Shown: in pieces, positions 3,582 to 23,156 of the stretch
Position numbering within the stretch: the stretch's first letter is position 1
Layout: each line of letters opens with the position of its first letter
Origin: a virus
Taxonomy: Duplodnaviria > Caudoviricetes
IMG/VR virus record: IMGVR_UViG_3300021256_002372
Span: 32,001-96,000 of that record
Strand: one strand, 5' to 3'
DNA: 64,000 nucleotides
Made by a program: the position numbers and the translations under genes
The notes under the pieces: generated by a model
Told to the model about the DNA's origin: nothing
Seen by the model: the letters and a program-made list of their open reading frames with translations, nothing else
Databases searched by the model: none

Positions 3582-4163
3582 TTATTCACCCTCCTTATCT
3601 GTGATTCCTGCAAATTCCTTCGCCTTTGCATGGATTGCATCATCGATAACAGCGTTCGTGGATTGGTATGCAGCGTAAGCGCTGTTCTGCTCTACAGAAT
3701 ACAGTGCCGTCAAAATCGCCTCGGCTATCGGTTTCTTGGAAAAACCGTGGGCATATGCAATTGTTTGCGCTTTCAGCTTATCCACATAGGGCAGTAATGA
3801 TTCTCTCGCCTTAACCGCTTCCTTGCGAATCGAGCCGTCAAGTGAGATCAGCTTTGCTCTGCGCTCCTCCAAGAGCTTTCTCGCTCTTTTCTGCCCCATG
3901 CTTTTCCCGTTTGGCGATTCAGCATCATCAAGATTACTCATGATGATCTGCGCCTCGCTCCGGTACTGTTCAGTACTTTCTTCGAGTGCCTTCATCATCA
4001 GCGCCGCGTAGTCGGTAAATGCTGCGATGCGCCTTGCGATGAAGGCGGCATCCTCAACCTCTCCCTTGTTGCGCTTGAACCAGCGGTCAAGCACCCCTGC
4101 CAGATAGCAGAAGAACAGGACAGAGTTGCGAAATCTTGGTTTCTTATGCTTTTTAGTTTTCAT
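3582..4163 (-). CDS. Hypothetical coiled-coil protein, first gene of the membrane module
   Basis: 193 aa with SD GGAGG; downstream of a near-consensus promoter. Confidence 0.7.
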   Translation of the reverse strand: MKTKKHKKPRFRNSVLFFCYLAGVLDRWFKRNKGEVEDAAFIARRIAAFTDYAALMMKALEESTEQYRSEAQIIMSNLDDAESPNGKSMGQKRARKLLEERRAKLISLDGSIRKEAVKARESLLPYVDKLKAQTIAYAHGFSKKPIAEAILTALYSVEQNSAYAAYQSTNAVIDDAIHAKAKEFAGITDKEGE

Positions 4164-4215
4164 AAGTATCCCTCCATATCAGAAGCGTGTCGGCATATCG
4201 GTGTTCCATGGTTCC

Positions 4216-4244
4216 ATTATAAAGGATAGGAAAACAAAAATCAA
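4216..4244 (-). promoter_or_regulatory. SigA-type promoter of the 4163->1 operon
   Basis: TTGATT-17 bp-TATAAT on the - strand. Confidence 0.7.
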
Positions 4245-4265
4245 AGAGCTTATAATACAAAAAGA

Positions 4266-4298
4266 TAAAAAAAGAGACCTGTCATTACAACAGGTCTC
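4266..4298 (-). terminator. Intrinsic terminator after the HD gene
   Basis: GAGACCTGT-7 nt-ACAGGTCTC hairpin followed by a T run on the - strand. Confidence 0.8.
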
Positions 4299-4305
4299 GA
4301 ACAAG

Positions 4306-4995
4306 TTATAGTTCATGAAGTATTCGCTCAATTTCAGTAAGTTTTTTCAGCTTATGGGCTTTGGTGTCAATAATATTTCCGCCCATATACACATTATCAG
4401 ATTGTGCCATAACATCAGCTTCGCATAGTATCAAAAGATCCTTCCATATATTTATTCCATGTGATGAGGTAGGAAGATGTAGAGCGTTACGCTCAATGTG
4501 GTTGGCGATATTGTCGGTTGATATTTCAACAAGATATGGGTTTTCCTTATCATAAGGTTCATCAGGCAAAACATACGATATGAAATCATCATGATGCTCG
4601 ATATAGAAGCTGATAAGTGCTACCTCTGTTTTGCCGAAGCCTTGACACGGTAGGATTTGCTCTACAAGCTCTGCTGATTTCTTCGCATGATGATAGAAAA
4701 CAAGCCGTCCCTCTTTTTCTGTAGCAACATATGGTTTTCCTATATCATGATAGAGTGCAGCAACCTTCAAAATATCTGCAAAGGTCTTTACATCATCTAT
4801 TCTTGACAGAACCCCACTCACTGTCCGAAGTGAGTGTTCCATCAAGTCATAACAATGGTGCGGATTATTCTGCTTATATTCAACCATATTAGCGGCATCT
4901 ATTCCCAAGAGGATGCCCACCATGCGTTTATGCATATGAAGCCAATTATCCAAGGGAAAGTCTAACGAAAGAAACAGGTCTTCTTTACCAATCAT
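4306..4995 (-). CDS. Stand-alone HD phosphohydrolase (similar to the HD domain of CCA-adding enzymes)
   Basis: NPHH..DLMEHS, AALYHDIGKP, FYHHAKKS, IEHHDD, CEAD motifs. Confidence 0.85.
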   Translation of the reverse strand: MIGKEDLFLSLDFPLDNWLHMHKRMVGILLGIDAANMVEYKQNNPHHCYDLMEHSLRTVSGVLSRIDDVKTFADILKVAALYHDIGKPYVATEKEGRLVFYHHAKKSAELVEQILPCQGFGKTEVALISFYIEHHDDFISYVLPDEPYDKENPYLVEISTDNIANHIERNALHLPTSSHGINIWKDLLILCEADVMAQSDNVYMGGNIIDTKAHKLKKLTEIERILHEL

Positions 4996-5001
4996 ATCGG
5001 A

Positions 5002-7695
5002 TCACCTGTCTTTCTCACGATTCCTAAAGAGCTCATTTTGCTTTTCGATTCTCTCCATTAGTTCCTTATAGATGAAATGATTCTTGTCAACGATACGAAT
5101 ATATGGTCCATAGCTCATTAATCGAATAAGAACATCGATCTCATCATATTTATGATAGTAGAGCGTAAATCGATACAGTTTTGTTTTAGGGTTTATCAGT
5201 TCACAGCGCTTCCGCCAAGGAGCAAATTCATTCAATAATCTGTCTGGAATATTCTTAGTGTCAATAAATTCAACTGTTATTTGTTTACTTGTATTTTGAA
5301 GAAAATCCGATAGTATTTTCTGATAGTCTTCTGGGCTAAAGGTGCTGTCACAGGGGGTGATGCCCGTTATTCCGTCTATATTCATTATACGAACACGTTT
5401 TGAAGCGTCATCTACAACATATAGCCTGAAACGATCATCGCGCTTTGAGTATTCAATATGAAGAGGACAGTATGTTCCTTTATATTTTCTCCCTTTTCCG
5501 TCCGTATATCTGATTTGCAAACGAACACCCTTATGTAGCGCAGAAATAAGTGCTTGAAAAAATTCAGCATTGGGTTTATGACCTTTAGAATGATACCGAT
5601 CAAATACTACAATATCTGATACATTTATGGGTTTGATACTATCTGGTATCAAAGCAAGAATCTTATTTATAGTATCTGAAGACAGAAACAGATTCATTTT
5701 ATCGTCATTCAGAATAGTACATAACCATCGAAGCTCCCAGGCTGTAAGTGGAATTACATCAAAAAACAAATCTGGTTCCATTTTTTGAACAGCCTTATAT
5801 TTCATGTGATATACATAATCTTTTTTATCTTCAGGCGCGCCCTCGACCCATGTATCGTATTCCATATATCCGCACTTGATAAATAGAAGGCGATTTAATG
5901 CGGATAGTAGATTGTATTTGCTTTTAGAACTTACAAATGAAAGTCTTGTGTGTAAACCTATTTCTTGTTCTCGCTTTTTGTAACATGACTCAATACATTC
6001 TTTAAGTGCATCAGCAGATAAACAATCAGAGTGATTTTTGCCTGATTCATATAGAGATGATAAGACATCACCGAATAGCATAAAATAAACTCCAAAGAAT
6101 GGGTTGAAAAGAGAATCGCTGATGCTTTCTTTGATTCGCGTAAAGGATGTTCCTTTTGGAATAAACCAATTAGAATTAAATGACGTATCAGGCTTTAAAT
6201 CTTTGAAATGACTATCAAGTTCCTGATATTCATTTACTTCATCAGATAAATGGAATGCGTCTGTATCTATTCCGGAACACTCTACAATTCTAGAATAGAA
6301 GCTTCTGATCCATGGCCGCATTTCCCTTGGGTCTGTCACCTTAATTGAGAAAACAATTCTATCTTTTTGGATAGTGATTGTACCATGTCTTTTTTCATGA
6401 TTCAACCTATTTATTATATAGTATTCCGAACCATCTGGATTATATTGAATGACAAGCCTTACCTCTTTGAGAGGTACAGGACTTTGCGCATTATTCTCCT
6501 GTCTGTCAGTTGTTGAGACTCCCCAAGAATAACGAATACCTGTAAGAGCATTTGATATTTCTTCTTTAATTTGTGAATTCTTTAATGAGATATCTTCTCC
6601 GTTCATTTTTATGTTATCGATAAGTTCAAGAGCAGTAATCAGATCAAGCCGAATGTTAGAGTAACTATGGTTATGAGGTGCATAAAAAGAGAGGTATTGC
6701 CGTCCGTTTGTTTGACTCGCTCGTATTTGTAAAGGAAAACATATAAGATGTTGCTCTTCACCTGACATTGGGTTGGACTGTGTGATTTTGCACCACAGCT
6801 TATCCTCCATTGCCTTTAATAGGTCAATTATAATATAGTCATTAAGCGATTGAGCGAAATACTCATGTTTAAATCTGAATATACTTCTATCAGCTTTATG
6901 CGCACGAGATAAGAAATATGTTCCGTATTCGCCAAGCACGAAAAATCTGGAAAAGAAATCTATCGCATCAAAGAACAAATCGGCAGCATCTCCGCATTCA
7001 GAGATGATATACTGAAGTGTAATCTTGCTAAGTTTCCACTTGACATTTCGCTTGTCAGACGAGACCTCTCTTAGTAAATGAAGATTCTCTCTTGGAGTTA
7101 GATACTTTCTAACTATCTGATCTTCTTCAAGAAAGCCCTTAGATACAGGCGCACAGAATGCTGCAATTTGTTTATATGTCAGTTCTCGGCGTTCGTAGTT
7201 TTCAAGAAAGCTGTCAAGTAAAGAAGTGATGCTATGCGATATCCCATCTGAAATCTTGCGTTCTTCTGAGATTATTTCTTCAAATCGATCTTTATCAATA
7301 ATTTTCAAAGCTGGCAATGAATCTTCACCTACAGAGAAGAAGTTCTCTGCAAGTTCATATTTCTCACTAAGCGCTAATACAGTATTAAAAAAAATAACCA
7401 GATCAGCTTTAGTATACATTGAAAAGCGATAAACTCTGTGAAACGGATTGCACTGCTGTGACTGCGAATCAGCTGAAATAAATGCAACCTTACTTCTTTC
7501 GGTTGACCATTGAAAATACTGATCTTGACGAAGAATATTTGATAATCTCACCCAGTCTTCATCAAGTGTCTTACGGGTTCCTGAAAGCGTAGAATAATTC
7601 ATAAACCCATATGTATAGTAGTTGCGGAGTGGATTTCTGAATTTTTCGATAAATTTGCTTTTGATCATCTCTTCATGTGTTTGATTTGTCGGCAT
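5002..7695 (-). CDS. Tandem WYL-WCX protein (fused PafBC-like pair)
   Basis: Two WYL units (FPLQI...GRQYL...IRLDLI; CPLHIEYSKRDDRFRL...MNIDGI), each followed by a WCX-like unit (PWIRSFYSRI; IRLMSYGPYIRIV). Start MPTNQ at 7695 behind AGGGGTG. Confidence 0.85.
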   Translation of the reverse strand: MPTNQTHEEMIKSKFIEKFRNPLRNYYTYGFMNYSTLSGTRKTLDEDWVRLSNILRQDQYFQWSTERSKVAFISADSQSQQCNPFHRVYRFSMYTKADLVIFFNTVLALSEKYELAENFFSVGEDSLPALKIIDKDRFEEIISEERKISDGISHSITSLLDSFLENYERRELTYKQIAAFCAPVSKGFLEEDQIVRKYLTPRENLHLLREVSSDKRNVKWKLSKITLQYIISECGDAADLFFDAIDFFSRFFVLGEYGTYFLSRAHKADRSIFRFKHEYFAQSLNDYIIIDLLKAMEDKLWCKITQSNPMSGEEQHLICFPLQIRASQTNGRQYLSFYAPHNHSYSNIRLDLITALELIDNIKMNGEDISLKNSQIKEEISNALTGIRYSWGVSTTDRQENNAQSPVPLKEVRLVIQYNPDGSEYYIINRLNHEKRHGTITIQKDRIVFSIKVTDPREMRPWIRSFYSRIVECSGIDTDAFHLSDEVNEYQELDSHFKDLKPDTSFNSNWFIPKGTSFTRIKESISDSLFNPFFGVYFMLFGDVLSSLYESGKNHSDCLSADALKECIESCYKKREQEIGLHTRLSFVSSKSKYNLLSALNRLLFIKCGYMEYDTWVEGAPEDKKDYVYHMKYKAVQKMEPDLFFDVIPLTAWELRWLCTILNDDKMNLFLSSDTINKILALIPDSIKPINVSDIVVFDRYHSKGHKPNAEFFQALISALHKGVRLQIRYTDGKGRKYKGTYCPLHIEYSKRDDRFRLYVVDDASKRVRIMNIDGITGITPCDSTFSPEDYQKILSDFLQNTSKQITVEFIDTKNIPDRLLNEFAPWRKRCELINPKTKLYRFTLYYHKYDEIDVLIRLMSYGPYIRIVDKNHFIYKELMERIEKQNELFRNREKDR

Positions 7696-7765
7696 AGGAA
7701 TCACCCCTAAAAAGGCGGTGGAAAACTTGTCCCTTTTATTAAGCCAAGCATTCCACCTCAATTTG

Positions 7766-10700
7766 TTACTCTATTGGTTCTTTTACAAGTTTAATCAGCC
7801 TCGTGAAACCTTCATCATCGAACAATTCCTTTGTAAGTTGCTGTAACTCTGAAAGTGTAATCAGTTGCCCCTTATTTCCATGAGCCGATGGATTTCTGAT
7901 GTCTCTAATATTAGCGATAAAGGCAGCATGCAAACGCCAATCACGAGCACTGCCAAAAGAACCGTTTGCCAAATCAGCGATATTACTCGTTGTATTGCTC
8001 GCATTATTGCCGTGGGAAACATTGATCGGAAATGCAAACGATCCTATTGTTAACTTCTGTTTTTGGGATTGCGGAAGTCTTCGGATTGCCCCCCATGTGT
8101 ATTTTTCGCGAGCATCCTTTCTTAAATCTGTTTTTACATCTACTAATACTTGACTATAAATATCTGTGTGGTATTCTTTCAGCATGCTCTCAATCAGCTT
8201 ACAGTACATGATAGAAACCGGGCTATAATCAAGAGTAGACAGATCGCCGCCAATGCTTCCGTTAATAAACATTTTTTCAAGTTGTGCTGCTAATCGAAGA
8301 GAATCAATAAAGCACGATGGAATATTATATCTCTGATGGAAAACATTAAATTCTTCTTCCGAGATCTTTAGAATATCCCAAACTGCGGGTAATTCTGTTT
8401 CGGTCTTATCAACAGCAGTCTGAAGACTTTCTTCCATATCAGCAGCGTATCCATCAATAGCATAGGATAATCTCGCATCCGAAATATCAGTTTCTTCAGA
8501 GTTATGCGGCGGTAGATAGGCATTGAGTCTTGGCAAATCACGCAATCCGGTAAGTACCTTTTGAGGATCACCGTTTGCTGTTAAAATACCGTTCAGCGTG
8601 TTTGTGATGTTTTTTACACTAATTTGTATTGTTTGATTTTCTATGATAGTACCTGTGTTAATGACGTCAACAGCAACACGTTTTCTGAATTCGGTCATCT
8701 TTTCGGAAGGTATGCTTGTGTCAAGATATGCCATAGATAACAAATTATATTTCGCATCAGGAGACAGACGATCAAACTCTTCCTTAGCTGTTGATAATGT
8801 TGACGCTTTATCCTCTTCAAGTTCAAATTGTGGATCCTCTGGAGGTGCAGCAAGTCTATTCTCAATCTGCTCACAGCTCATTTGATTGATACCAAGAAAA
8901 GCATAGTAATAAAACACCGTTGTGAAAGTGTATGCGCAGACAATACCGCTCTCATCTCGCTGCTCACGCAAAATCCCACGCTTCACTGCAATTTCGATAG
9001 AATCACCGATCGTATTTGCATACAAGTCTTTCAGACGCATAGAATTGAAAACAGATTTCGGAAAACTTTCGTTGCTTGGATTCTCCCTCAGCCATTGCGC
9101 AATATACATCAGGAACAGCATGTCCGTTTCTTTATCAAGATTTTTGACAACTGCATCGTAAATGTGGATGATTCCTTCTACAACACTCCCATTTGTAGTT
9201 TGCTCATGCTTCTGCCGATTCAGCAATGTTTGAACCGCCCATGTAATATCTGAAGGGAAAATAGTATTTCTATTCGTGAAGGAAGAAGCATCCCTGCATA
9301 CTTTTCTCAGAATTGTATTGCAAATCTCCTTTCCGTATAAGGCAATTCCGCCTGTATAAGTATACAGCGCATCAATCGCAGAATCCGAATAACAAATCAA
9401 GTCTTTCGGAAATTCTTCTGCCTCGCAGATCATTTTCCTGAATCCATCTCTCGGCAGCGGACCAACCAAGATGCCGGTATCTGGAATAATCTTTCTCCAA
9501 ACCGATTTCTCTGTTGAGGTCATCTGTTTCAAAAGCTCGTCAGATCCGCACAGCACAAGACGAACAGCATGCGGATATTCCGGATCCGAAATCTTCAAAT
9601 CCGAGCAAACTAAAGCAAAGGCAGATGTTGCGGACTCTATATTTTTCCATTGACGGACTACCTCTTGAAATTCATCCATCAGCAGCCACAGTTCTGTTTC
9701 ATTTTTGCGGAGAAGTTCCTCAAGGTTTGAATATCGATCCACCAAATTCGATTTCTTGTCGCTTAGTACAGACGTTATTTGTTTTTTCAGTTCTTGTGTT
9801 AATTCTTCGCCGACAACGGCAAATCTTTTTGGCTTATCAATGCTGTGGATAATAGAGTCGCAGAGCAAATAATCAGATACCTCTGAGGCGTTTGAATAGT
9901 CTAAAGGTGTATCGTCGTAGAATTTTATCGTATAATCGCGTTCTTTGAAGGTTCTTTCACCCGCTAGAAGAATCGTTATAATACGTTTTGCAGACGAGTT
10001 TGGGGCAGTTACATTTTGTTTACTCAAAAAACGTCTTACCCAATTCAGCAGAGATGTTTTTCCGATTCTTGACGGTCCATACAGAACTGTCAGCCCTTCC
10101 TTTAATGACTGACGTAGCTTTTCCTTATCATTTTCCCGTCCGAACAGCATTTCTTCATCTGTAACCGCACTGTCCACATGATACCATTGCTTTTTCTCCG
10201 AAATCCCAACGCTTTCCTGGTCGTGATGAATTTGCAATGTCTTTCTGAATCGGGAGTATAGTACTTGATTCAGCCAAGCAGATACTGTGACATCAACAGT
10301 TGAAAGATTTTCCAGTTGAATTGGCAGTTTGACGCAGAAGCCGCTAACATAACCGTGACGAAGTTCTGTAATTGTATTATCCATTCCGATTATGATTTCG
10401 TTCGGATTATCATTGAAACTCAAAGTGATTTTAACATGATTATCGCCCAGATTGTCAAGATTCACGGTACTGTGTCCGACATTTAGGATTTGTGCATAGA
10501 TGCATCCATCCGAACAAGAATCATTCACAATTTCAATATGAAGTCTAACATCTTTTTCAAGCTGTTTTATTTCGTGCTCAACTGCTTTTTGCAGATATCC
10601 GGCGAATCTAGAATAGAAGACTGTAGCGATATTTAAGGACTTCAGTATGATAAGGCGCTGTTCAAGAGAAGTGTCCTTATGCAAGACCTTCTGTAGCACC

Positions 10701-13700
10701 GGTATAATCTGCGCCTTCACAATTTCAAGTTCTTTGGAAGTCTCGTCATCCTTGCTGATACAAGCACTGATCAGGTCATAATATCTGCACCAACAATTTA
10801 TGTCAAGACCTTCTTGAATCAGCTTGTCCATAGTTTTCTTGCTAATTGAGTAAAAATTGCGTTGAGTGGAGATACTCAGCACATTGATGGTGCTGTCAAG
10901 ATCGGCTAGAATGATGATACGAGCTTCTGGAGTAAGCTTATTTTCATTTTGCAGCATTTCTATACCCACGATATAAGCCACTTCTAGATAGGAAGGCATG
11001 TCGCGCTTAGTATTTGTTTTAGACATCACCATGAGTAACTGGATGCCTAATTCAGTTTTCTTCTCCCCTTCGGCAACTCGATATGCCGCATAAAGCTCCT
11101 CCATATCGGTAACCTTTGGCTGAGGGATGTTCAACATCCTAGAAACCGCATTAATAAACTTATATTTGCTGCTTTTAGCCGTTCTGTAACTTGAATCACC
11201 ATCAAGACTCGGAGGAGCAAACATTTCTGACATATCTGACAGCATATACTGCTTCAATGCTAAATATGACTTGTGCCATGTCTCCGGCAAGTTCTTGTCA
11301 AAGTCAAGATCGTCAAAGTACATTGCCAAGGATTCAGCATCTTTACTGATTGCAGCCTGAACACAATGTAAAAAACGGTAAACAGTTTGTGCTTGTGGAT
11401 GCTCGGTCGAGATATAATTTAGCACGTACAGATAACGATCACTTGTGTCACCTTTTGCAGAAAGCGAGTACATCTTTTCGTATAGGCGCAACGGGAGTTG
11501 CACAGATGCAAGTAGCGGAATGAGCATCTCACGGCATTGGTCAAAATCCTTAGTTGGAACTTTCAGTATCTTTGTTACGCATGTGCTGGCCTTTTCAGAT
11601 TGCACCACTTCTACTAACAGCTCATACGATTTTGTATCTGAGTGCATTTGTAAATATGCAAGAACATCATGAACCGGTTTAGAAACCCCTTCGGACAGTT
11701 TTAACAAATAGTCGATTTTATCAGGATGAAGAATATAATATTTCAAGGTGCTGACATTGAATTCACGATAAGCAACTTCAGAAACAACCAGTTTCATTGC
11801 GTTCGGATTAAAGCATTCAACATCAGAGAGGAGGTGCATGGTACATTCGTCAAAGAATTCACAGAAGTCTCCGTTTAGCAATGAAAACAGCATCAATTTG
11901 TGCATTGTATTCATTTCGGTTGTGCATTGTAAATCTTCGGATTTACAAACGAGTAACATGATTGCTTGCTTAAAAGGAATATATTTTGTTTGATAGCTCA
12001 ATTCCTTATGACCAAAATATTCCATACTGGAAATAATTGATCCGTCATCTATCTCATCGACATGATTTGAACCAAGAAGGCAAAGTGCCAGCAACGCCTT
12101 TTGATATCTTCTCTCGATATAAAAAAGATCAAAGTCGCTGTTATGATAAACCTGATACAGATAGGTTTTATATGAGAAATATGCAAAAATATCAAACGCA
12201 TCCCAAGCCGTTAGTTCTGCATAGCTACAGCTAAAATAGTTAGAATACAGATCTTGATCATAGAGTACAGAGGCGATGATAGAATACACGATCATTTTGT
12301 AAGGTGCGGAATATGTTTCCCTATCGAATAAAAACAGGTTTTTCTTGCTTGGATAACAGGACAGAATGGTTGCAATATCACGCTTGATACGAATAATGTC
12401 ATGTTCGGACTGATTCATCCAGTTCGGGATATAGCCTTGCGTTATTTCATCAGAATACCCATATAGGAAGCGCACAACAGAAACGAGGTTGCTTTCAACA
12501 TACCCGAGCGCATTCCAATGCTCATTTCGAAGGATATTTCGATATTCAAAGGCATTTTCAACCTTATCATACACCTTGCACAAGTGACGTAAGATAGCGA
12601 TTCTTCCTTCATCGTAAACAAGCAATCTTGACATATCGATGAGGCTGAACAAATCTTCTTGACCATCTATGCACTCAATAAGATCAAAGTATATCTCCTC
12701 ATGTGATTCATTAAACTTATTTGCACAGATATTTATAAAATCTTGAACAGAATAATTAAGTTCACGCGTTATAGGACTGATAGTTATTCTCGTTTTGAAA
12801 TCATCACTTTGTATCATTGCGTCATGTATTTTGTGAAAAATGATTTCTGAATCTGCATTCGCAAGAAAAGGACATATCATATTTAGATAATTAAAAGGGA
12901 TTTCATCAATCGTGAGTGCAATTTGACTCTCCGCCATTTGTATGACAATTCCTGTAAATTCTGGCGTAGCCTTCATTTCTAAATAAGAAATGGCATTTGC
13001 GCAAGCGCAAATTTTCCATGCATTCAAGTTAGGCTTCTTAGTGATGTGTTCAAAGAACTTTCTCCATCTTTGTGGATCTTTTGCGTTCTTAATCAGATAT
13101 TCGTAATTCGAAGCAAATGAATGCGTCTGCTTTTTCGACAGTCCTATTTTCTCTGGTAGTTTAAGATTTCCACACCAATCAAGGAAATCGATTAGCTGTT
13201 CAGTCGACAGATAGATAAAGGACTTTTCAATGACCGAAAAACGAGTCATAGTATCGTTCACTACTTTTGTAAACCGATTTCCGAGCCATCTGCGGAATTG
13301 TGTATATATGTGGCTGTGTCCTCTTTCCAATGTATCCTTATAGCATGCATACAGGTAAATAGCGTAAAACGGATTGTTCAAAACACAGTATAGAACAATC
13401 ATTGTATTAATGACATATGTTGAATTAGCTGTATAGTGTTTAGATGTAAATGCAAGAGCTTTCTCCAAAGACCATGCGCTGTTAAAAATGTTTCGCGTTT
13501 GCTCAGAAATGCCACAGTGTTCGCATATATCGATTGTTACATGTAGAATATGATCTTGAAGATTATTATCGATTACAAATGAAAGAGCTTCTTCGTAATA
13601 GTGAAGGAAAATTAAAGAATCAATATACTTTACAATGAGTTGTCGATTTGTCTGCTCCGGACTGCCATTAAACACGTGTTTGAATAATCGGCAAAAGGCT

Positions 13701-16594
13701 TCGTAGGCGTGAATAGCATATAAGTCATCTAGAACATCCTCCACATGATCCGGTGCGCTATCAATGATATCACAACCCATTACCCAATCTGCATACGCAT
13801 CTTGCAGTTTCATTTCATGCGTATAATCAAACTTGAACACATCAAACAGACTAATCAGCACAGGCGATGTAACTTCTGTCACAGGGAAAACATCTGACGT
13901 CTGCTGTGCATAATAGCTATCTGAAATATTCCTCCAATGTCCCCAGTTTTCTTTCATATCCACAGTTAATACTGCTTCTGATATATCATCAAAAGATTTT
14001 TTTGCGTACACTGCCAATCCGTAAAATGCATCATTAGTGCTGAGAAGATTAATAATCACAGAAAAAGAACCAAGTAATGATAAGCGCTTTTCTTGCTTAG
14101 TAAGATCTCCTTGTGTTACTCGCAAGCGCAGAATCTCATCGACACTTGCTTCGCAATCATATTTCAGTGTAAATGCCAAGATCTTTAGAAAAGCAGGTGA
14201 AAGGACATCAACAAATCCAATCTTCTCCCAAATTTGCGCTACAATTTTCTGATACAGTTCTTTGTTGATATTCGTGTCAAAGATTGTGCGGTATTCCTCT
14301 TCTGTCAGCGTGTCATAGTGATTATACACCTTAAATAAAAAATGAAACATTGGCTCAGCAAAAAGGTGACTAATCGGAGAGATCTCGTTGAGCGCATTGA
14401 GGTCAACAAAAGTCGAAAACAACTGGGTTAAAAAGATTCTGGAAGGACAATCAAATTGATTCTGTTCTTCGCAAATAGAAATAATAGAAGGCAGATACAA
14501 CCAATTTTCAGGCGAACCAGGTATCAGAGATGCTCCTGACTGCGGACGGTTCACACGCTTTATCATTCTGCACAACTCGTTCAGCTGCTCATATTTTCTA
14601 CTTGGGTGGGCTATGATATAAATAAACAACAGATAGGGATATAATTCATTCCAACATGACTCTGCACGCTCAATCAATCCTATGTAATCAGTATTATGCG
14701 TTTTGGCGGCTAAATATCCAATGGAATTGAATAATTCTTTTGCTGCATTAATTTTATCTTTTTTCAATCGGAACGTGCGGGGTGGGATACTTGTGGAGAG
14801 GCATTCTTCCAGTGCAGTATTATCTATTACGATTCCATTCTTGTATTTTTTTACAATGTCAGTGCCCAAAGGTGCTTCAAGCAACGTTTTTTGGAACGAA
14901 TTTAGTGTAAACACAGCTTCTTCATCTTTGGTAAGTAAACGTTTAGCACACGTTAATGCTTTGGTAAAGAAGAAGGGTGGGATGTCAATAGGGCGATATT
15001 TCGTAAAATGTTCAGATGATAAGAATCCGTAATAATCGCCTGACTCGTAAAGCGGAGTTAATACCGAGGCATCGTCAGACGAGAAAAAAGAGATTTCCTG
15101 TCCGCTCGCTATAATAATGGCTGGATAGTCTTTTCCCCCAATATATGCATGCGTTTTCGACACGAAATCGGTTAAATACTTTTCTACGAATTGTGTCAAA
15201 GAGTCTGCATACAGTTTATAATTATCCAAACCAAATCGTTTGAAAATTGTTGGTAACTCGGAGGATAACATATACCCATTATCCCTGATGATGGTGCTGA
15301 TTGTCTCAGATACACTCAATACTATATCAGAAGGCAACATTAATTCACCACTATAATTATCAAAGCTCTCAAAATCAACACGCCCTTTTTGTAAAAGAAC
15401 CCGCTTGTAATACCGTTGACCGATAACCACATCATCTTGTATCTCTAATCCATTCAATTCTTTTTCAACGAATTCAGAGAAACTTGAGGGGAGAATGGAG
15501 GCATCTATATTGTACTTCTCAAGCAATCCTGTCACAAGTGAAAAGTCAGCAAACCCTCGCTCACCTATGATTTGGAGAAGTTCAGATTTCATATCTTCAA
15601 TAGCTGCTGCTTTAAGTCTACTATCAACGGATGTAATAATACAGGGCTGAGTTTTCCCATCTATGTAAACATTTGTTTCAACTTTGAACTCAGTGTTGAA
15701 ATATAAAGATATAAAAGCTGTAATAGATTCAGCAAATCGATGATAGTCTAGGATGCCAGCTTTTTTCAACAACGCTGGAAAATATGCCCCCTTGACATAA
15801 CCATATTCCTCTATGTACTGTTTGATAATACTCACAGTATTTTTAAGAGCTTCTTCATCCAAATTGTTGTTAGGCAAAATTATACAAGGCTGATTTTTTC
15901 CGTCAATAATAACATTATTTTCAACTCTAAATTCGTTGCTAAAAAAGGATGAAATAAATGAGACGATAGAAACCGCATACTGATGAAAATCGTTGATCCC
16001 TGCTTGTTTGAGCAGTTCTGGCAGATATGCTCCTTTGATATAGCCATGTTCCCTGATGTATTGTGTTAAAACACTGACAACCTTCTTCATTGTGTCATTA
16101 TCCAGATCTTGTGATGACATAGGGGATTTTCCAAATGAAAGATTTGCACTTGCTTGCGCAGAAACAATCGCGCAGGGACAAATTTTGCCATTCACCCTTA
16201 CATCAGATCTTGATGTGTATTTGGGGGCCAAGTATTTTGAAATAAATCCAGTCATATTTTGGGCGTAGGTTTTAACATCTTGTACTCCATTACCTTTTAA
16301 TAACTGCGAAAATTCTATTGCTGTTAAAAAGCCTTTTTGCTCAACAATTGCATCAACTTCAGCAATAATATCTTGGACGATATCGTTCGATAATTCAGGA
16401 TACTCTATTTCGGCTTGACGAATTAATTGCGCGTACTCTTTTCCCTCTAACTCAATGATATCAAATTCGATAATGAAACCAGGGCGTACATAAACTGAAG
16501 GACTAGAAAAAGAATATTCCCTGCCATCCTGAGAAGATATGATCCCCTGTACTATCCCATCAATCTTAGACACCGTTATTACTCTTCCGATCAT
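7766..16594 (-). CDS. Giant multidomain protein: OB/cold-shock-like N-terminus, 5 LOTUS/OST-HTH-like repeats, long helical region, beta-rich domain, STAND-like NTPase, C-terminal HEPN
   Basis: GIISSQDGREYSF (CSD-like); five ~80-aa repeats G(F/Y)..(L/F)..LL...G..D...Y..S...F(I/V); LFGRENDK, Walker A GPSRIGKTS (10078-10052), Walker B LLMDEFQ; LDYSPVSIMYCKLIE...IRNPSAH (RxxxxH). Start MIGRV at 16594 behind GGGGG. Confidence 0.8.
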   Translation of the reverse strand: MIGRVITVSKIDGIVQGIISSQDGREYSFSSPSVYVRPGFIIEFDIIELEGKEYAQLIRQAEIEYPELSNDIVQDIIAEVDAIVEQKGFLTAIEFSQLLKGNGVQDVKTYAQNMTGFISKYLAPKYTSRSDVRVNGKICPCAIVSAQASANLSFGKSPMSSQDLDNDTMKKVVSVLTQYIREHGYIKGAYLPELLKQAGINDFHQYAVSIVSFISSFFSNEFRVENNVIIDGKNQPCIILPNNNLDEEALKNTVSIIKQYIEEYGYVKGAYFPALLKKAGILDYHRFAESITAFISLYFNTEFKVETNVYIDGKTQPCIITSVDSRLKAAAIEDMKSELLQIIGERGFADFSLVTGLLEKYNIDASILPSSFSEFVEKELNGLEIQDDVVIGQRYYKRVLLQKGRVDFESFDNYSGELMLPSDIVLSVSETISTIIRDNGYMLSSELPTIFKRFGLDNYKLYADSLTQFVEKYLTDFVSKTHAYIGGKDYPAIIIASGQEISFFSSDDASVLTPLYESGDYYGFLSSEHFTKYRPIDIPPFFFTKALTCAKRLLTKDEEAVFTLNSFQKTLLEAPLGTDIVKKYKNGIVIDNTALEECLSTSIPPRTFRLKKDKINAAKELFNSIGYLAAKTHNTDYIGLIERAESCWNELYPYLLFIYIIAHPSRKYEQLNELCRMIKRVNRPQSGASLIPGSPENWLYLPSIISICEEQNQFDCPSRIFLTQLFSTFVDLNALNEISPISHLFAEPMFHFLFKVYNHYDTLTEEEYRTIFDTNINKELYQKIVAQIWEKIGFVDVLSPAFLKILAFTLKYDCEASVDEILRLRVTQGDLTKQEKRLSLLGSFSVIINLLSTNDAFYGLAVYAKKSFDDISEAVLTVDMKENWGHWRNISDSYYAQQTSDVFPVTEVTSPVLISLFDVFKFDYTHEMKLQDAYADWVMGCDIIDSAPDHVEDVLDDLYAIHAYEAFCRLFKHVFNGSPEQTNRQLIVKYIDSLIFLHYYEEALSFVIDNNLQDHILHVTIDICEHCGISEQTRNIFNSAWSLEKALAFTSKHYTANSTYVINTMIVLYCVLNNPFYAIYLYACYKDTLERGHSHIYTQFRRWLGNRFTKVVNDTMTRFSVIEKSFIYLSTEQLIDFLDWCGNLKLPEKIGLSKKQTHSFASNYEYLIKNAKDPQRWRKFFEHITKKPNLNAWKICACANAISYLEMKATPEFTGIVIQMAESQIALTIDEIPFNYLNMICPFLANADSEIIFHKIHDAMIQSDDFKTRITISPITRELNYSVQDFINICANKFNESHEEIYFDLIECIDGQEDLFSLIDMSRLLVYDEGRIAILRHLCKVYDKVENAFEYRNILRNEHWNALGYVESNLVSVVRFLYGYSDEITQGYIPNWMNQSEHDIIRIKRDIATILSCYPSKKNLFLFDRETYSAPYKMIVYSIIASVLYDQDLYSNYFSCSYAELTAWDAFDIFAYFSYKTYLYQVYHNSDFDLFYIERRYQKALLALCLLGSNHVDEIDDGSIISSMEYFGHKELSYQTKYIPFKQAIMLLVCKSEDLQCTTEMNTMHKLMLFSLLNGDFCEFFDECTMHLLSDVECFNPNAMKLVVSEVAYREFNVSTLKYYILHPDKIDYLLKLSEGVSKPVHDVLAYLQMHSDTKSYELLVEVVQSEKASTCVTKILKVPTKDFDQCREMLIPLLASVQLPLRLYEKMYSLSAKGDTSDRYLYVLNYISTEHPQAQTVYRFLHCVQAAISKDAESLAMYFDDLDFDKNLPETWHKSYLALKQYMLSDMSEMFAPPSLDGDSSYRTAKSSKYKFINAVSRMLNIPQPKVTDMEELYAAYRVAEGEKKTELGIQLLMVMSKTNTKRDMPSYLEVAYIVGIEMLQNENKLTPEARIIILADLDSTINVLSISTQRNFYSISKKTMDKLIQEGLDINCWCRYYDLISACISKDDETSKELEIVKAQIIPVLQKVLHKDTSLEQRLIILKSLNIATVFYSRFAGYLQKAVEHEIKQLEKDVRLHIEIVNDSCSDGCIYAQILNVGHSTVNLDNLGDNHVKITLSFNDNPNEIIIGMDNTITELRHGYVSGFCVKLPIQLENLSTVDVTVSAWLNQVLYSRFRKTLQIHHDQESVGISEKKQWYHVDSAVTDEEMLFGRENDKEKLRQSLKEGLTVLYGPSRIGKTSLLNWVRRFLSKQNVTAPNSSAKRIITILLAGERTFKERDYTIKFYDDTPLDYSNASEVSDYLLCDSIIHSIDKPKRFAVVGEELTQELKKQITSVLSDKKSNLVDRYSNLEELLRKNETELWLLMDEFQEVVRQWKNIESATSAFALVCSDLKISDPEYPHAVRLVLCGSDELLKQMTSTEKSVWRKIIPDTGILVGPLPRDGFRKMICEAEEFPKDLICYSDSAIDALYTYTGGIALYGKEICNTILRKVCRDASSFTNRNTIFPSDITWAVQTLLNRQKHEQTTNGSVVEGIIHIYDAVVKNLDKETDMLFLMYIAQWLRENPSNESFPKSVFNSMRLKDLYANTIGDSIEIAVKRGILREQRDESGIVCAYTFTTVFYYYAFLGINQMSCEQIENRLAAPPEDPQFELEEDKASTLSTAKEEFDRLSPDAKYNLLSMAYLDTSIPSEKMTEFRKRVAVDVINTGTIIENQTIQISVKNITNTLNGILTANGDPQKVLTGLRDLPRLNAYLPPHNSEETDISDARLSYAIDGYAADMEESLQTAVDKTETELPAVWDILKISEEEFNVFHQRYNIPSCFIDSLRLAAQLEKMFINGSIGGDLSTLDYSPVSIMYCKLIESMLKEYHTDIYSQVLVDVKTDLRKDAREKYTWGAIRRLPQSQKQKLTIGSFAFPINVSHGNNASNTTSNIADLANGSFGSARDWRLHAAFIANIRDIRNPSAHGNKGQLITLSELQQLTKELFDDEGFTRLIKLVKEPIE

Positions 16595-16608
16595 TTTATA
16601 TCCCCCTA

Positions 16609-17085
16609 TCAACTGTTAAACCATTTTTGCCAATTATCATCTTGAATTGCATGAGATGTTTTCTTTTTAGTATCAGCAGTTTGAGCTTTTTTAGCATCGA
16701 TTGTTTGAACCGTTTTAGGTCGTTCAGTTTCTATCACTGCGAACGCATAATTGTTCGGATCAAAATCAAATATATTTGCGGAATATCCGTTTCTTGTCAT
16801 CTCAAAGATTGTAGCGCCACTATCAATAGCCTTATTGAATGCATACAGAATCGTTGCTTCAATAAGCTTCCTTCCAATCTCATTGATTGGGTGAGCTATA
16901 TCCATAAAGCCACCTTGTTTTTTGGGCTTACTCGGCATTGCTATAAAGAATCGTTCATTTGCATATAAGACCTTAATATCATTAACAGCAAATACGCCAT
17001 CAATAACTATACTTGCTACTGCCTTCATTTTGCTATTGCTATTGGACTCAGGAAACACATATATCTTCACCGAAGTAATAACCAT
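16609..17085 (-). CDS. spoVG: SpoVG-family nucleic-acid-binding protein with C-terminal extension
   Basis: ITSVKI...MKAVASIVID..FAVNDIKV...FIAMPS....GGFMDIAHPIN matches SpoVG; ~70 extra residues; SD AAGGAG. Confidence 0.85.
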   Translation of the reverse strand: MVITSVKIYVFPESNSNSKMKAVASIVIDGVFAVNDIKVLYANERFFIAMPSKPKKQGGFMDIAHPINEIGRKLIEATILYAFNKAIDSGATIFEMTRNGYSANIFDFDPNNYAFAVIETERPKTVQTIDAKKAQTADTKKKTSHAIQDDNWQKWFNS

Positions 17086-17160
17086 AATCATTCTCCTTGT
17101 AAAAATAAAAAGCAAATCGTTTCGACATATAGCCCTGTGTTTTTCTTGATATTCATATTA

Positions 17161-17189
17161 ATTATAGCACATTTCGACAATAAAGTCAA
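17161..17189 (-). promoter_or_regulatory. Extended -10 SigA promoter for the spoVG-like operon
   Basis: TTGACT-17 bp-TATAAT with TG upstream of the -10. Confidence 0.8.
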
Positions 17190-17305
17190 GATTTCCAAAG
17201 CGAAAATATAACGGTTCTAAACAAAAAAATTCTGCTCATTATTATGTTTTGCGTATACTGAGAATCAAGTATTACATTCAGTTGATATCACATATGGAAT
17301 ATTAA

Positions 17306-17339
17306 TAATAAAGAGGCTGCAAGTCACCCTGCAACCTCT
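17306..17339 (-). terminator. Probable terminator ending the R-M transcript
   Basis: AGAGGTTGCA...TGCAGCCTCT hairpin followed by TTATTA. Confidence 0.55.
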
Positions 17340-17378
17340 GTATTATTATTCTCTGTCAGTAGTTATTTCTTTCGCTAC

Positions 17379-17660
17379 CTAGGGTTCGTTCGTAGCGGCG
17401 GCACACTTGTCATCAGTGCAACAATTACTCACCCCTAGATGCTTCTCAATGATCCTCATTATCTCCTCAGCTCGTTTTTCACCGATGCCCTTAACGCCCT
17501 TGATATCTTTCTCCACTTCTCTGAGATCAACGGTAGGCGCATCCTTTCGCAGCTCGTCAGCATATCGCACAAGAAACGCCTGCAGTTCCTCACGAGACAT
17601 CTTCTTAATGGAGCGATAGGTATCGCGGTCGATCATATTTTGGCTCATTGTGGTTATCAT
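17379..17660 (-). CDS. Small protein with a helix-hairpin-helix motif
   Basis: VKGIGEKRAEEI HhH signature; start uncertain (17660 or 17648). Confidence 0.65.
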   Translation of the reverse strand: MITTMSQNMIDRDTYRSIKKMSREELQAFLVRYADELRKDAPTVDLREVEKDIKGVKGIGEKRAEEIMRIIEKHLGVSNCCTDDKCAAATNEP

Positions 17661-17697
17661 ACTTCTTACTGTGTTTAATCCGATAGAGAGCATCTGT

Positions 17698-17928
17698 TCA
17701 AGATAAAGTCATCTGCTTAATAGCTCTTTCCACGCTTTCAATTAGCATCGGTCTCCGCATCTCACCGACCATTTTATCAAACTCGTCACCAGTCGGCTCA
17801 CCGTACATGAGGTTATCGCCATCGGTGGTACGAAGCCAGACTAATGCTTTCTTTAGTGAGGATAGTGATGTAGTATCAAAGCCTTTAGATTGCAGGAAGG
17901 TTAAGTTTGCATCGTGTTGTGTGGGCAT
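17698..17928 (-). CDS. Hypothetical protein
   Basis: 76 aa with SD AAAGGA, co-oriented in the operon. Confidence 0.55.
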   Translation of the reverse strand: MPTQHDANLTFLQSKGFDTTSLSSLKKALVWLRTTDGDNLMYGEPTGDEFDKMVGEMRRPMLIESVERAIKQMTLS

Positions 17929-17947
17929 CGTGTGTTTTCCTTTCAGC

Positions 17948-18889
17948 TCAATCGCCAGTGTACTTCTTTAAGAACGGCGTGAATGCCTCTCTGAGCGCAA
18001 CTACCAAGTCAATGGCTCTACTCATCAAATCTCTGTAATTGCTTTGATCGTTGAAGTTCAACTTTGGAATGCAGGTGCAAATTGTGCAGGCTTTTTTGTT
18101 TTCCAGTTTGTCCCAATCCAAAGACATACCTGCTGCAGTTTCAATTTCTGTTTTATGCTCAAAGAAATAGTCGAACATTTCCTTACTGTCATCAATCCAC
18201 AGTCCAACCCTAATCTTGTGGTCTTTATGCACTAAATCAATGGAGATATGGCACTTTGATGATCCAACAGCAACTGTGTACCAGTGATCGGTGGAGGGCT
18301 TATGCTTATTGAAAGGTTTTCCACGCTCATCAATAAGATCGTTCAGTCGCGTCCAAAAATCAAGACGATACTTCTGTGTTTCATTCAACTCGCCCTTTTC
18401 AGCGAGTGCTTTTGCGTTCTTGACAAAGTCATTCGGCTGTTCTATGATTTTGAACATCGGTGCCGGATCAGAATCACCGATTCTATAAGCATGGATTTCA
18501 ATCAAAAAGAAGGAGATATTGTCATCAGTATGGTTATTCAGCCATTCAATGGCACTTGCGTGCTCATCCCTCGCAGTCTCCACAATCCAAACAACAACGC
18601 TGGCATCCAGACCGGAAGCATAAGTGATGATCTTTCCGAGATGGTCGTGGTTCGTCTGTTCAAGCTGATTTTCAATCAGAACAGATTTGCCAGTAAGTTC
18701 ATCCTTGCAAATGATATCGCAGCGATAGCTGCCCACGAACTGTTCTGTGTTCACATCGGTCAGCGAAAGGTTGAGAACCTCTCCGAGTAACTTGATGTTT
18801 TCTTCTTCAGCAAGCCACTTTGAGAAGTCATATTGTTCATGCGCCCATACATCGCGGATATCAACTTCGTGTAATTTTCCGAGTTTCAT
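17948..18889 (-). CDS. DUF4268 protein with N-terminal PD-(D/E)xK-like domain
   Basis: VWAHEQYDFSKWL, RCDIICKD...VLIENQL..TNHDHLGK; C-terminal LDFWTRL...LDWDKL. Confidence 0.8.
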   Translation of the reverse strand: MKLGKLHEVDIRDVWAHEQYDFSKWLAEEENIKLLGEVLNLSLTDVNTEQFVGSYRCDIICKDELTGKSVLIENQLEQTNHDHLGKIITYASGLDASVVVWIVETARDEHASAIEWLNNHTDDNISFFLIEIHAYRIGDSDPAPMFKIIEQPNDFVKNAKALAEKGELNETQKYRLDFWTRLNDLIDERGKPFNKHKPSTDHWYTVAVGSSKCHISIDLVHKDHKIRVGLWIDDSKEMFDYFFEHKTEIETAAGMSLDWDKLENKKACTICTCIPKLNFNDQSNYRDLMSRAIDLVVALREAFTPFLKKYTGD

Positions 18890-18921
18890 CGAAATCCCTC
18901 CAGTCCCTATATACGATTCTA

Positions 18922-21570: not shown

Positions 21571-21581
21571 GCTGTACCTCC

Positions 21582-23156
21582 TTACAGTCTTGTGATGTCA
21601 CGCGGAATCTTTTTGAATGTGATGTGATAACGCTCCAGCTCTTCTTCGCTGAGAATGCAGCGGTCGGCATAGATCACATAGCTTTCCGCTTTGGTCTTGA
21701 CCGTTGACAGGAAAGCGTGATCGAGTGTTGTTGCGGCATTTTTGTCATAGAAGAAGTAGTATGCCGTGTCAAGATAGGAGCCAAGATAATGCGGCTCGTC
21801 CTCTTTATTGGTTACAGGCTGTTTTGTTTCTGTGAAATAGACATAGCTTCTGATTTTGTCAAGCGGTACATTTTCATTGAGGTATTCACCGTCAAGGAGC
21901 TTTTCACCAAGTTCATAGAAGGTGAAGCCGCCGCCTGTTCCTTCGACTGCCTTTTTGCCGTCACCGTAGCCGTCAATGACACGGCGCACACGTTCAGCGG
22001 TGATCGTTTCAGCATAGTCACACATCTCGATTAGAATAAACTTGCGGTTACCGCCGTCAGCTTTGTTCATGTTGAGGACAGCGTGTGCAGTTGTGCCGGA
22101 GCCTGCAAAAGAGTCGAGAATGACAGAATCCTTGTCGGTTGCAATCTGCATCACTCGTTCTATTAAACGAGTAGGCTTAGGTGTATCAAAAATGCTCTCA
22201 TTATCTGAAAGTATGGACATGATCTCTTTCTTAGCTTCATCTGTGTGTCCTACTTCATCACTAGGCCACCAAGTCCACGGAACAGCTCCTTCGACCTCGC
22301 TCAAATATCTGATAGTTTGGGGCTGAGAATCTCCATTCTTACCAAAATATATACGACCTGCTTCCAGTAGTTTTTTGAACTCAGGCTCTATGGTACTCCA
22401 ACAACGTCCCTTGGGAGGAGTTACTATTTTACCGCTAGGTGTTTCTATAGGATACATTTGATTTGGCCGAAATCCCTGTGCTGTCATCGGAACACCGCGC
22501 CAACGTCCTTTAGGATCGTTATTCGGATTTTTATAGATTTGCGCTTGTTTTTCGTCGAATCCTATTTTATGGCGTGTGTTTTTGAATACTTCGACATCAG
22601 AAGCATATACAAGTAGATATTCGTGCGCATCGCCAAAAGCGCCTCTGTTCTCACGAGAATATCTTTTTTGCCAAACTACAGTTGCTATATGATTGTTTCT
22701 TCCAAAAACTTCGTTGCAGATGATCTTTAGTTCTTCAATTTCATTTTCATCAATAGAAATAAAGATTACTCCTGTTTGTGGATCCAATAGTTTCTGTAAC
22801 AGTTTCAACCTTGGATACATCATGCACAGCCACTTATCATGCCGTGACAAATCTTCACTCTCTGAACCGACAACCTGACCAAGCCATTTTCGGATACGGG
22901 GATCATTGACATTATCGTTGTATACCCAGCCTTCGTTGCCGGTATTGTACGGCGGATCAATGTAGATGCACCGGATTTTTCCTTCGTATTCCGGCAGCAG
23001 ACTTTTCAGCGCCTCCAGATTATCTCCGTGGATAATCATGTTGCCTGTGTCATCACCATAGGTATACTGCGGATCTAACACACGGTAGGGTACGTCCATA
23101 TGATGATTGATAACCTTGTCTTTTCCGATCCAGTCAAGTGTCGGCATTATGGTCAC
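21582..23156 (-). CDS. mod: Type III R-M DNA methyltransferase, Mod subunit
   Basis: IHGDNLEALK, IYIDPPYNTG, TPKP, LDSFAGSGTTAHAV. Confidence 0.92.
   Translation of the reverse strand: MTIMPTLDWIGKDKVINHHMDVPYRVLDPQYTYGDDTGNMIIHGDNLEALKSLLPEYEGKIRCIYIDPPYNTGNEGWVYNDNVNDPRIRKWLGQVVGSESEDLSRHDKWLCMMYPRLKLLQKLLDPQTGVIFISIDENEIEELKIICNEVFGRNNHIATVVWQKRYSRENRGAFGDAHEYLLVYASDVEVFKNTRHKIGFDEKQAQIYKNPNNDPKGRWRGVPMTAQGFRPNQMYPIETPSGKIVTPPKGRCWSTIEPEFKKLLEAGRIYFGKNGDSQPQTIRYLSEVEGAVPWTWWPSDEVGHTDEAKKEIMSILSDNESIFDTPKPTRLIERVMQIATDKDSVILDSFAGSGTTAHAVLNMNKADGGNRKFILIEMCDYAETITAERVRRVIDGYGDGKKAVEGTGGGFTFYELGEKLLDGEYLNENVPLDKIRSYVYFTETKQPVTNKEDEPHYLGSYLDTAYYFFYDKNAATTLDHAFLSTVKTKAESYVIYADRCILSEEELERYHITFKKIPRDITRL

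Follow-up and report, generated by a model that had tools for sequence, protein, structure and literature searches.

The giant STAND-type protein that we describe here begins with an N-terminal arm made of a divergent cold-shock-like head and five tandem copies of what looks, from predicted structures, like a new, family-specific winged-helix domain of LOTUS-like shape, its sequence link to LOTUS being too weak to serve as proof. The gene lies in a stretch of 64,000 nucleotides, the window, which covers positions 32,001 to 96,000 of the IMG/VR virus record IMGVR_UViG_3300021256_002372 (Caudoviricetes, 125,539 bases). Positions given below are those of the window, and residue numbers are counted from the ATG at 16594; the stored protein (P0001) begins 6 residues earlier.

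Five tandem repeats in a giant protein

A preliminary description of this DNA had placed five tandem repeats of about 80 residues behind a cold-shock-like domain, and all ten motif strings by which it characterized the units are present there, in the reverse-strand frame. We compared the units, taken as segments of about 82 residues, by Smith-Waterman alignment with 300 shuffles for each pair. Repeats 1, 2, 3 and 5 resemble one another at z scores of 18.6-22, with 48.5 for the pair formed by repeats 2 and 3, and repeat 4 reaches only 2.8-7.4 against the others. In global alignment, repeats 2 and 3 are 59% identical and every other pair is 18-31% identical. A five-unit hidden Markov model (HMM) finds exactly five full-length copies in the giant protein (E 1e-30 to 4e-39) and no further copy elsewhere in this protein or in the 125.5-kb record. 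That the repeats might be a chance or low-complexity pattern, or the open reading frame (ORF) no real gene, is vanishingly improbable and is refuted by conservation: the 8.8-kb frame is maintained in more than 60 clusters and in 26 genomes with invariant catalytic motifs, the repeat z scores run from 19 to 48, and the fold prediction is confident. Nothing was found in its favour; the AT-rich island in which the gene lies (GC 0.37-0.40) favours long spurious frames only weakly.

A tree of the repeats follows positional orthology, with one clade of first repeats, one of R2/R3-type units, one of divergent penultimate repeats (the R4 type) and one of last repeats (R5). Repeat 4 of the window falls with P0008_R5 and P0009_R4 in the penultimate clade, with support 99/97. 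The R2/R3-type unit is single in the homologs P0006 and P0007, and P0008 has independently duplicated its own R3-type unit. The recent expansion that the preliminary description saw in repeats 2 and 3 stands in part: they are the youngest duplicate, grouped in the tree, but the event is not very recent, since the two copies are 59% identical and the duplication is common to homologs that are only 60-74% identical overall. The number of repeats does vary, as that description had thought worth checking: close homologs have four (P0006, P0007), five or six (P0008, L006, L007), and the range across the family is one to six.

The coding sequence of repeat 2 contains a promoter-like site (TTGACG-16-TATAAT, 11/12 consensus, 15879-15906 on the reverse strand), probably a chance match in AT-rich DNA; the region holds 63 promoter-like sites, compared with 47 +/- 8 in shuffles. 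A weak SpoVG match within the same repeat (E 0.005) was dropped as chance, recurring in 1 of 42 family repeats (E 0.17).

Predicted fold of the repeat and its relation to LOTUS domains

The arm was modelled with AlphaFold2 (AF2) over 510 residues, with ten homologs as the alignment. The model has a mean predicted local distance difference test (pLDDT) of 79.6 and a predicted template-modelling score (pTM) of 0.35, the latter pointing to independent domains arranged as beads on a string. Within it, every repeat runs through a long helix, a short strand, a helix, a short helical turn, a helix and a beta-hairpin. Repeat 5 modelled singly, from an alignment of 23 sequences (A3), reaches pLDDT 91.4 and pTM 0.79, with helices at its positions 3-20, 25-34 and 47-54, a short strand after the first of them, and strands at 58-66 and 69-77; helix 2 and the recognition helix are separated by a 12-residue connector that includes a 3-residue helix (positions 40-42). 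Each repeat is predicted to follow the winged-helix order a1-b1-a2-a3-b2-b3, so that the models return a fold of the winged helix-turn-helix type (wHTH), the one on which the preliminary description depended, and the hairpin-like end that it had noticed in each unit is a predicted beta-hairpin, that is, the wing.

Several comparisons point, if weakly, to LOTUS domains as the nearest to this fold. VIA-align of the repeat 5 model ranks the LOTUS domains of TDRD7 and Oskar first, and re-ranking of the Foldseek list gives Oskar 7.1 and 6.9 and TDRD7 6.6. The three best named clusters by ESM Atlas features are OST-HTH (0.88, 0.82 and 0.81), as are 10 of the 10 best family-bearing matches. Foldseek with a single repeat returns only generic winged helices (E >= 0.19), among them NE0665 (2kpm) at TMq 0.56, which is a bacterial LOTUS protein (PMC7498356), and the viral library BFVD gives unnamed or generic wHTH proteins only (best E 0.03). 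Two profiles of family repeats, one built from 149 and one from 42, were compared by hhalign with canonical Clostridia OST-HTH domains collected with the Pfam model. The alignments cover 57-60 columns in the expected structural register (P 0.015 and 0.0053), taking in a G-aromatic pair before b1, a D-x-K/R-x-Y-A/G connector, a hydrophobic a3 and the start of b2, and they lay the connector of the repeat on the PDFD.RNYGF connector of canonical OST-HTH. The score was reached by 1 of 150 column shuffles, and a comparison with the cold-shock heads aligned 1 column.

Other results weigh against kinship with LOTUS and, with it, against the nucleic-acid-binding arm considered below. The HMM search that the preliminary description had proposed came out negative: the Pfam OST-HTH model (PF12872, gathering score 23.8 bits) has no match at E <= 10 in the whole protein, in the 501-residue arm, in each repeat, in the six-frame translation of the 125.5-kb record or in 42 family repeats. 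The same model recognizes canonical OST-HTH domains in 37 of 150 Clostridia genomes. One genome has both such a domain and a member of the giant family, and there the model matches only a separate ORF of 309 residues on another contig. Scans of the arm with Pfam, NCBIfam and PADLOC models gave no OST-HTH or cold-shock match, phmmer of the arm against PDB sequences found nothing, and a search of the same sequences with the repeat profile brought up no LOTUS chain. The ESM Atlas scores lie below 0.9 and are graded by the tool as a lead only, and the hhalign probabilities are only 3.0% and 6.8%. Marginal PDB rows returned by the repeat profiles (the BmrR C-domain, MTA9 and Cas10) were taken as spurious.

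The LOTUS-likeness is thus drawn from structure and from language-model features, both of which are below the tools' own confidence lines. On balance we lean slightly towards the repeat being a very distant OST-HTH relative, though it fails the family HMM test and is not to be filed as a member. The repeats could instead be ordinary DNA-binding wHTH domains, unrelated to LOTUS, that sense or tether double-stranded (phage) DNA, which we consider improbable. Foldseek does match winged helices that bind DNA (PadR, MarR, MukE, Fur, Z-alpha and Stf76), the OST-HTH sequence tests failed, and a type III restriction-modification system adjoins the unit. However, these Foldseek matches are weak (E 0.19-1.3, TM 0.4-0.57), the Foldseek-independent search and the language model both rank LOTUS first, and the effector at the other end of the protein is of HEPN-like RNase type, not a DNase. 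The long connector between helices 2 and 3, with its short helix, is also unlike the tight turn of a classical wHTH (PMC13186709).

The cold-shock-like head and the linker

The five strands of the head (residues 2-11, 14-21, 26-31, 41-49 and 52-60) form a predicted OB-type beta-barrel in the AF2 model, and Foldseek of the 510-residue model returns OB folds including the Ta0387 OB domain, CspB of Mycobacterium tuberculosis (Mtb), eIF1A and RPA. A profile of the window head with the heads of eight relatives (A6) matches solved cold-shock domains (CSDs), with E values of 2.1e-6 for Unr, 1.7e-4 over the full length of Thermotoga maritima Csp, and about 0.01 for dozens of others. The Pfam CSD model (PF00313) matches 3 of these 9 heads, with 1.3e-7 as the best, and does not match the window head alone. 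Since the window head has no match by itself while the aligned heads of the family do, the cold-shock-like character described earlier holds, and the window copy belongs to the CSD family by transitive homology only, as judged from sequence.

Cold-shock proteins bind nucleic acids through two aromatic motifs, RNP1 (K-G-F-G-F-I) and RNP2 (V-F-V-H), and the RNP1 aromatics stack on bases. The RNP1 of the window copy, GIVQGII, is devoid of aromatics where relatives keep KGIYGFI, so that the window head is a degenerate CSD; this counts against a nucleic-acid-binding role for it. The RNP2-like EYSFSS of the window head keeps Y and F in the A6 alignment.

Between head and repeat 1 lies the linker AEIEYPEL, a possible hinge or docking motif. 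It is more conserved than both flanking domains, since 10 homologs, the most distant at 34% identity, all keep E62, I63, E64, Y65, P66 and L68. In roughly half of the family the cold-shock head of about 65 residues gives way to a head of about 160 residues (for example in L012:4160-4700, L020:3635-4170, P0017 and P0022) with the recurring motifs YGV...F..I.P.F.N, VIF.PS and YLVRY..GG...N.KTG..QPTIDY; this head is doubled in L021 and P0067.

NTPase, C-terminal domain and domain order

Far downstream of the arm, the protein matches the Pfam model nSTAND1 (PF20703) at E 7.8e-8, its score of 32.8 bits exceeding the cut-off of 27.1, as well as ATPase_2, AAA_22 and AAA_16. GPSRxGK(S/T), DEFQ and CGSD do not vary among 36 members of the family, and the Walker B region of the window protein reads LLMDEFQ. 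PADLOC models gave no match beyond a weak one to the GajA P-loop. The name of the nSTAND1 clade comes from Kaur et al. 2021 (PMC8195603).

The last 160 or so residues contain an RNxSAH motif, about 40 residues before the C-terminus, whose R, N, A and H show no variation across 19 and again across 36 aligned members; it has the form Rx4-6H, the signature of the HEPN superfamily. Sub-threshold matches in 19 members were to DUF4145 (7 members, best 6e-4), RiboL-PSP (4, 1.3e-3), MAE_28990 (2), Swt1 (1) and Apea (1), all of them models that we take to be of HEPN type, and the best PDB sequence match of the domain is HepS (E 0.75). From these motifs and matches, we infer a HEPN-like RNase.

The stretch of roughly 1,500 residues that separates the array from the NTPase gave only noise with Pfam and no usable lead in ESM Atlas recognition (1051). 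Just before the NTPase, a beta-rich segment (about 10200-10600 on the reverse strand, residues ~2000-2130) weakly matches the NCBIfam model of the archaellum stator ArlG (E 0.021) and may be an immunoglobulin-like sandwich domain.

STAND proteins such as Avs and NLR usually have an N-terminal effector, a central NTPase and a C-terminal repeat sensor. The inverted order that had been suspected here is borne out: the NTPase occupies residues ~2145-2391 of 2,942 and the RNxSAH domain the extreme C-terminus, so that binder-type modules, middle region, NTPase and effector follow one another in the reverse of the usual layout.

Distribution of the family and exchange of its ends

When searched against 1.84 billion representatives, the repeat profile matches only 69 clusters at E <= 1e-3. 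Full-domain matches lie nearly all in proteins of 2,600-3,000 residues that have a Walker A motif near residue 1,850-2,300 and RNxSAH about 40 residues from the end. Shorter matches, of 420-1,900 residues, that reach past the array share the downstream region of the family and are therefore fragments, a status judged only by similarity downstream of the array. Partial matches to about positions 9-47 of the profile (P0038, P0041, P0043, P0045, P0055 and others) share nothing downstream with the family and were set aside as unrelated. The repeat is essentially confined to the N-terminus of one giant STAND family.

A genome scan with the conserved NTPase region gave 26 family loci, which belong to gut Clostridia (Ruminococcus, Lachnospiraceae, Christensenellaceae, Faecalimonas, Acutalibacteraceae, Oscillospiraceae and Faecalibacterium), to Erysipelotrichales and to a single metagenome-assembled genome (MAG) of Odoribacter. 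A metagenome scan with the arm alignment gave 4 loci; the same alignment found no loci in genome and viral contigs, its peptide patterns being too narrow. The Odoribacter locus (L016, contig CAKVCR010000027.1) is a full spoVG-giant-WYL-HD locus and all other loci are from Bacillota; its presence in a MAG labelled Bacteroidota could reflect transfer or a binning error.

Comparisons between members show how the protein changes. Up to residue ~2500, P0002 and the window protein agree at about 99% of positions; from there on identity falls to 25%, and P0002 ends in a different HEPN-like tail (RNKTAH). Sliding identity puts P0006 at 91% and 82% within the first 200 residues and at about 25% beyond. 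P0004 is about 60% identical overall and 76-82% in the tail (window 7766-9100, reverse strand). These sequence comparisons indicate cassette exchange by recombination at both ends of the protein. The arm is a modular cassette, whose copy number shifts by tandem duplication of an internal unit and which recombines between distant members.

Gene coordinates and neighbouring genes

The features described here are collected in Table 1. The open frame extends from 7766 to 16612 on the reverse strand, and we assigned the start to the ATG at 16594 because AGGGGGA stands 6-7 nucleotides upstream of it, the TGA of the spoVG gene lies 14 nucleotides before it, and all close homologs begin with the same N-terminus, MIGRV.

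Table 1. Features of the giant gene and its surroundings, with positions in the 64,000-nucleotide window.
Feature	Position	Residues	Strand	Basis
Giant STAND-type gene, 2,942 aa	7766..16594 (stop 7766-7768)		-	ORF listing and translation; full-length homologs P0002-P0010
Cold-shock-like head and five-repeat stretch, N-terminus of the giant ORF	15098-16594		-	
Head, divergent cold-shock (OB/S1-like) domain	16415..16594	1-60	-	AF2, Foldseek, family profile A6
Linker AEIEYPEL, head to repeat 1	16391..16414		-	Coil in AF2 model
Repeat 1, predicted winged helix	16151..16393	68-148	-	HMM domain E 9.8e-37; AF2 helices 70-87, 92-101, 114-121, then hairpin
Repeat 2, predicted winged helix, paralog of repeat 3	15863..16105	164-244	-	HMM E 4e-39; AF2 helices 166-183, 188-197, 210-217, strands 222-230, 233-241
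Repeat 3, predicted winged helix, abuts repeat 2 directly	15620..15862	245-325	-	HMM E 1.3e-38; in tree with R2-type units
Repeat 4, divergent predicted winged helix without GK..P hairpin motif	15380..15616	327-405	-	HMM E 4.8e-30; AF2 helices 326-346, 351-360, 372-379, strands 383-391, 394-402
Repeat 5, predicted winged helix, modelled singly	15098..15337	420-499	-	AF2 single-unit model
nSTAND1-type P-loop NTPase	9422..10162 (Walker A GPSRIGKT 10055-10078)	~2145-2391	-	Pfam PF20703
C-terminal HEPN-like domain	7769..8230 (RNPSAH 7880-7897)	last ~160	-	Motif conservation and weak Pfam matches
SpoVG-domain protein, 168 aa, upstream partner	16609..17115		-	Pfam SpoVG E 4.6e-23; stop 14 nt before giant ATG
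919-aa protein with weak WYL match, downstream partner	5002..7761		-	Pfam WYL E 3.5e-4, below cut-off
HD-domain protein, last gene of unit	4306..4995		-	Pfam HD E 7.2e-10
Best promoter-like site, upstream of spoVG	17161..17189		-	TTGACT-17-TATAAT, extended TG, 11/12, top of scan; consensus match only
Strong terminator-like hairpin after HD gene	4274..4298		-	11-bp stem, then T7

The neighbours recur elsewhere in the family. A SpoVG gene stands directly upstream of the giant gene in seven other loci (L006, L008, L009, L016, L019, L032 and L033), and in 8 loci the next gene downstream encodes an ortholog of the WYL protein (E 1e-65 to 1e-152), which an HD gene follows in 5 loci. We take the record to be a prophage or phage of gut Clostridia in which the giant gene is part of an AT-rich defence-type unit (spoVG, giant gene, WYL and HD) with a presumed function in defence. 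The GC content of this unit, 0.37-0.40 over window 4000-18000 as opposed to 0.50-0.57 in the right half (30000-64000), suggests that it is separately acquired cargo within the virus record.

Directly upstream of the promoter-like site of spoVG (17948-23156, reverse strand) are genes for a DUF4268 protein, a ResIII helicase-type restriction subunit of 882 residues and an N6/N4 DNA methylase of 524 residues; the latter two resemble a type III restriction-modification system, and all three share the AT-rich island of the unit.

Possible function of the arm

With its degenerate CSD, conserved AEIEYPEL linker and five winged-helix beads carried by a giant nSTAND1-type NTPase, the arm would be a multivalent nucleic-acid-binding device, probably for structured or single-stranded RNA, and SpoVG may act jointly with it. 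Its task would be either to signal the presence of invader RNA to the STAND switch or to keep substrate in place for the C-terminal HEPN-like RNase, which would act once NTP-driven oligomerisation had paired the HEPN domains. To the core of this proposal, a multivalent binder of nucleic acid, probably RNA, that triggers the NTPase switch or feeds paired HEPN domains, our analysis gives nearly an even chance. The nucleic-acid context argues for it, namely the SpoVG partner, the HEPN-like C-terminus with its invariant RNxSAH, and the WYL and HD partners. The predicted winged-helix fold, the comparisons that lean towards LOTUS, the cold-shock kinship of the head, the modularity of the arm and the precedents of Egalitarian and TERNS3 count in its favour too.

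To the counterpoints already given, others must be added. The window repeats have isoelectric points (pI) of 4.7-6.3 and the head has 4.5, compared with a median of 8.9 for canonical bacterial OST-HTH domains, and this near-neutral to acidic charge, together with the lost RNP1 aromatics, weakens the case for nucleic-acid binding. Further, spoVG, WYL and HD are all absent from many family loci.

The same features would suit an array that serves as a protein-protein docking scaffold, one that recruits SpoVG, a helicase or a phage protein, or that braces an oligomer; we regard this, the main rival, as somewhat unlikely. Models for it are the complex of eLOTUS with the Vasa helicase and the winged-helix arrays of UFL1, of cullins and APC2, of ESCRT-II and of the partners of Nse and kleisin proteins. 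The top Foldseek matches of the whole arm are tandem winged-helix scaffolds of this type, UFL1 (E 1.3e-4), TFIIIC tauB, Nse1/3/4 and ESCRT-II, and both the neutral to acidic repeats and a CSD without RNP1 aromatics fit such a role. Vasa is reported to be bound by the LOTUS domains of Oskar and TDRD5/7 (PMC5458760), and the bacterial LOTUS domain NE0665 did not bind G-quadruplex (G4) RNA (PMC7498356). On the other hand, modules of nucleic-acid type abound around the arm and in its neighbours (CSD, SpoVG, HEPN-like, WYL), and no partner gene is common to all loci. Jeske and colleagues are said to have found in 2017 that eLOTUS contacts Vasa through its C-terminal helix; this helix is not predicted in the window repeats, each of which ends with a hairpin.

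A more specific form of the RNA-binding proposal would make the protein a direct RNA-sensing STAND immune receptor of reversed polarity, in which the recombining, copy-variable CSD and LOTUS-like arm, aided by SpoVG, reads the shape or multiplicity of invader RNA, much as the LOTUS-like domains of Egalitarian do with stem-loops, leading to NTP-dependent assembly and, through it, to activation of the HEPN RNase. On the present analysis, we hold this version to be rather unlikely.

Comparison with known systems

Among known domains, LOTUS/OST-HTH (PF12872, as in Oskar, TDRD5/7, MARF1 and bacterial NYN-LOTUS proteins) is the most similar to the window repeats. Both are about 80 residues long with the order a1-b1-a2-a3-b2-b3 and a long a2-a3 connector, as predicted for the repeats; both occur in tandem arrays, in TDRD5/7 and MARF1 as in the giant protein; and both are fused or linked to RNases, NYN in LOTUS proteins and a HEPN-like domain here. 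LOTUS/OST-HTH domains also appear to be the best structural and language-model neighbours of the repeat, and the register of the motifs agrees. They differ in that there is no HMM-level similarity, that the invariant bacterial signature GW...PDFD.RNYG is replaced by GF/GY...GI.DYK.YA in the repeats, that their pI is basic whereas the window repeats are neutral to acidic, and that repeats of the window type were met nowhere but in the N-terminal part of one family of giant STAND proteins.

The Egl domains of Egalitarian are wHTH-like and close in form to LOTUS, an extra helix 3 setting them apart from the SelB archetype, and the tandem domains ED1-ED3 (Pfam WHD_Egal, PF23713) cooperatively clasp bent double-stranded RNA stem-loops beside an exonuclease-homology domain (PMC13186709). 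The repeat 5 model appears to share with ED1-ED3 the added helix 3, or long connector, and these domains offer an analogy of known structure for the proposed RNA-binding arm. Egalitarian, however, is a eukaryotic transport adaptor without an NTPase switch, and its domains have no detectable sequence relation to the repeats.

With the STAND antiviral NTPases (Avs/bNACHT; nSTAND1 clade, PMC8195603) the giant protein shares the nSTAND1 P-loop, huge size, swappable terminal modules and a defence-island context, but in the giant protein about 2,140 residues precede the NTPase and the HEPN-like module is C-terminal. The TERNS3 conflict systems of bacteria have effector modules in which OST-HTH is fused to S1 OB-folds (PMC8195603). 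As in the giant protein, an OB-fold binder and OST-HTH-type domains are found together in a predicted counter-invader system; in TERNS3, in contrast, they belong to separate effector proteins of MoxR-vWA-type ternary systems and the OST-HTH is bona fide, whereas the module of the giant protein is fused to STAND and is far more divergent. Our literature search found no paper on an architecture with a CSD, a winged-helix array and a STAND NTPase, and the nearest precedent is the OST-HTH plus S1 combination of TERNS3 (PMC8195603).

The repeat is a clean new domain family, with about 60 clusters among 1.84 billion representatives and one architecture only, and merits a profile of its own. In characterized bacterial STAND defence proteins, Avs and bNACHT among them, it is mostly phage proteins that are sensed, by repeats at the C-terminus, and the effector that is fired lies at the N-terminus. 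In the giant family the N-terminal end consists of a modular arm with folds of nucleic-acid-binding type and the C-terminal end of an RNase-like effector, both ends being exchanged by recombination. If the arm binds RNA, the sensing of nucleic acid by a STAND switch could be put to the test in this family, and LOTUS-like domains, so far known mainly from eukaryotic germline RNA biology and from bacterial NYN RNases, would extend to the prophage-borne immunity of gut Clostridia. Were direct RNA sensing to hold as well, the giant protein would be a prokaryotic counterpart of the LOTUS-based RNA surveillance of animal germlines.

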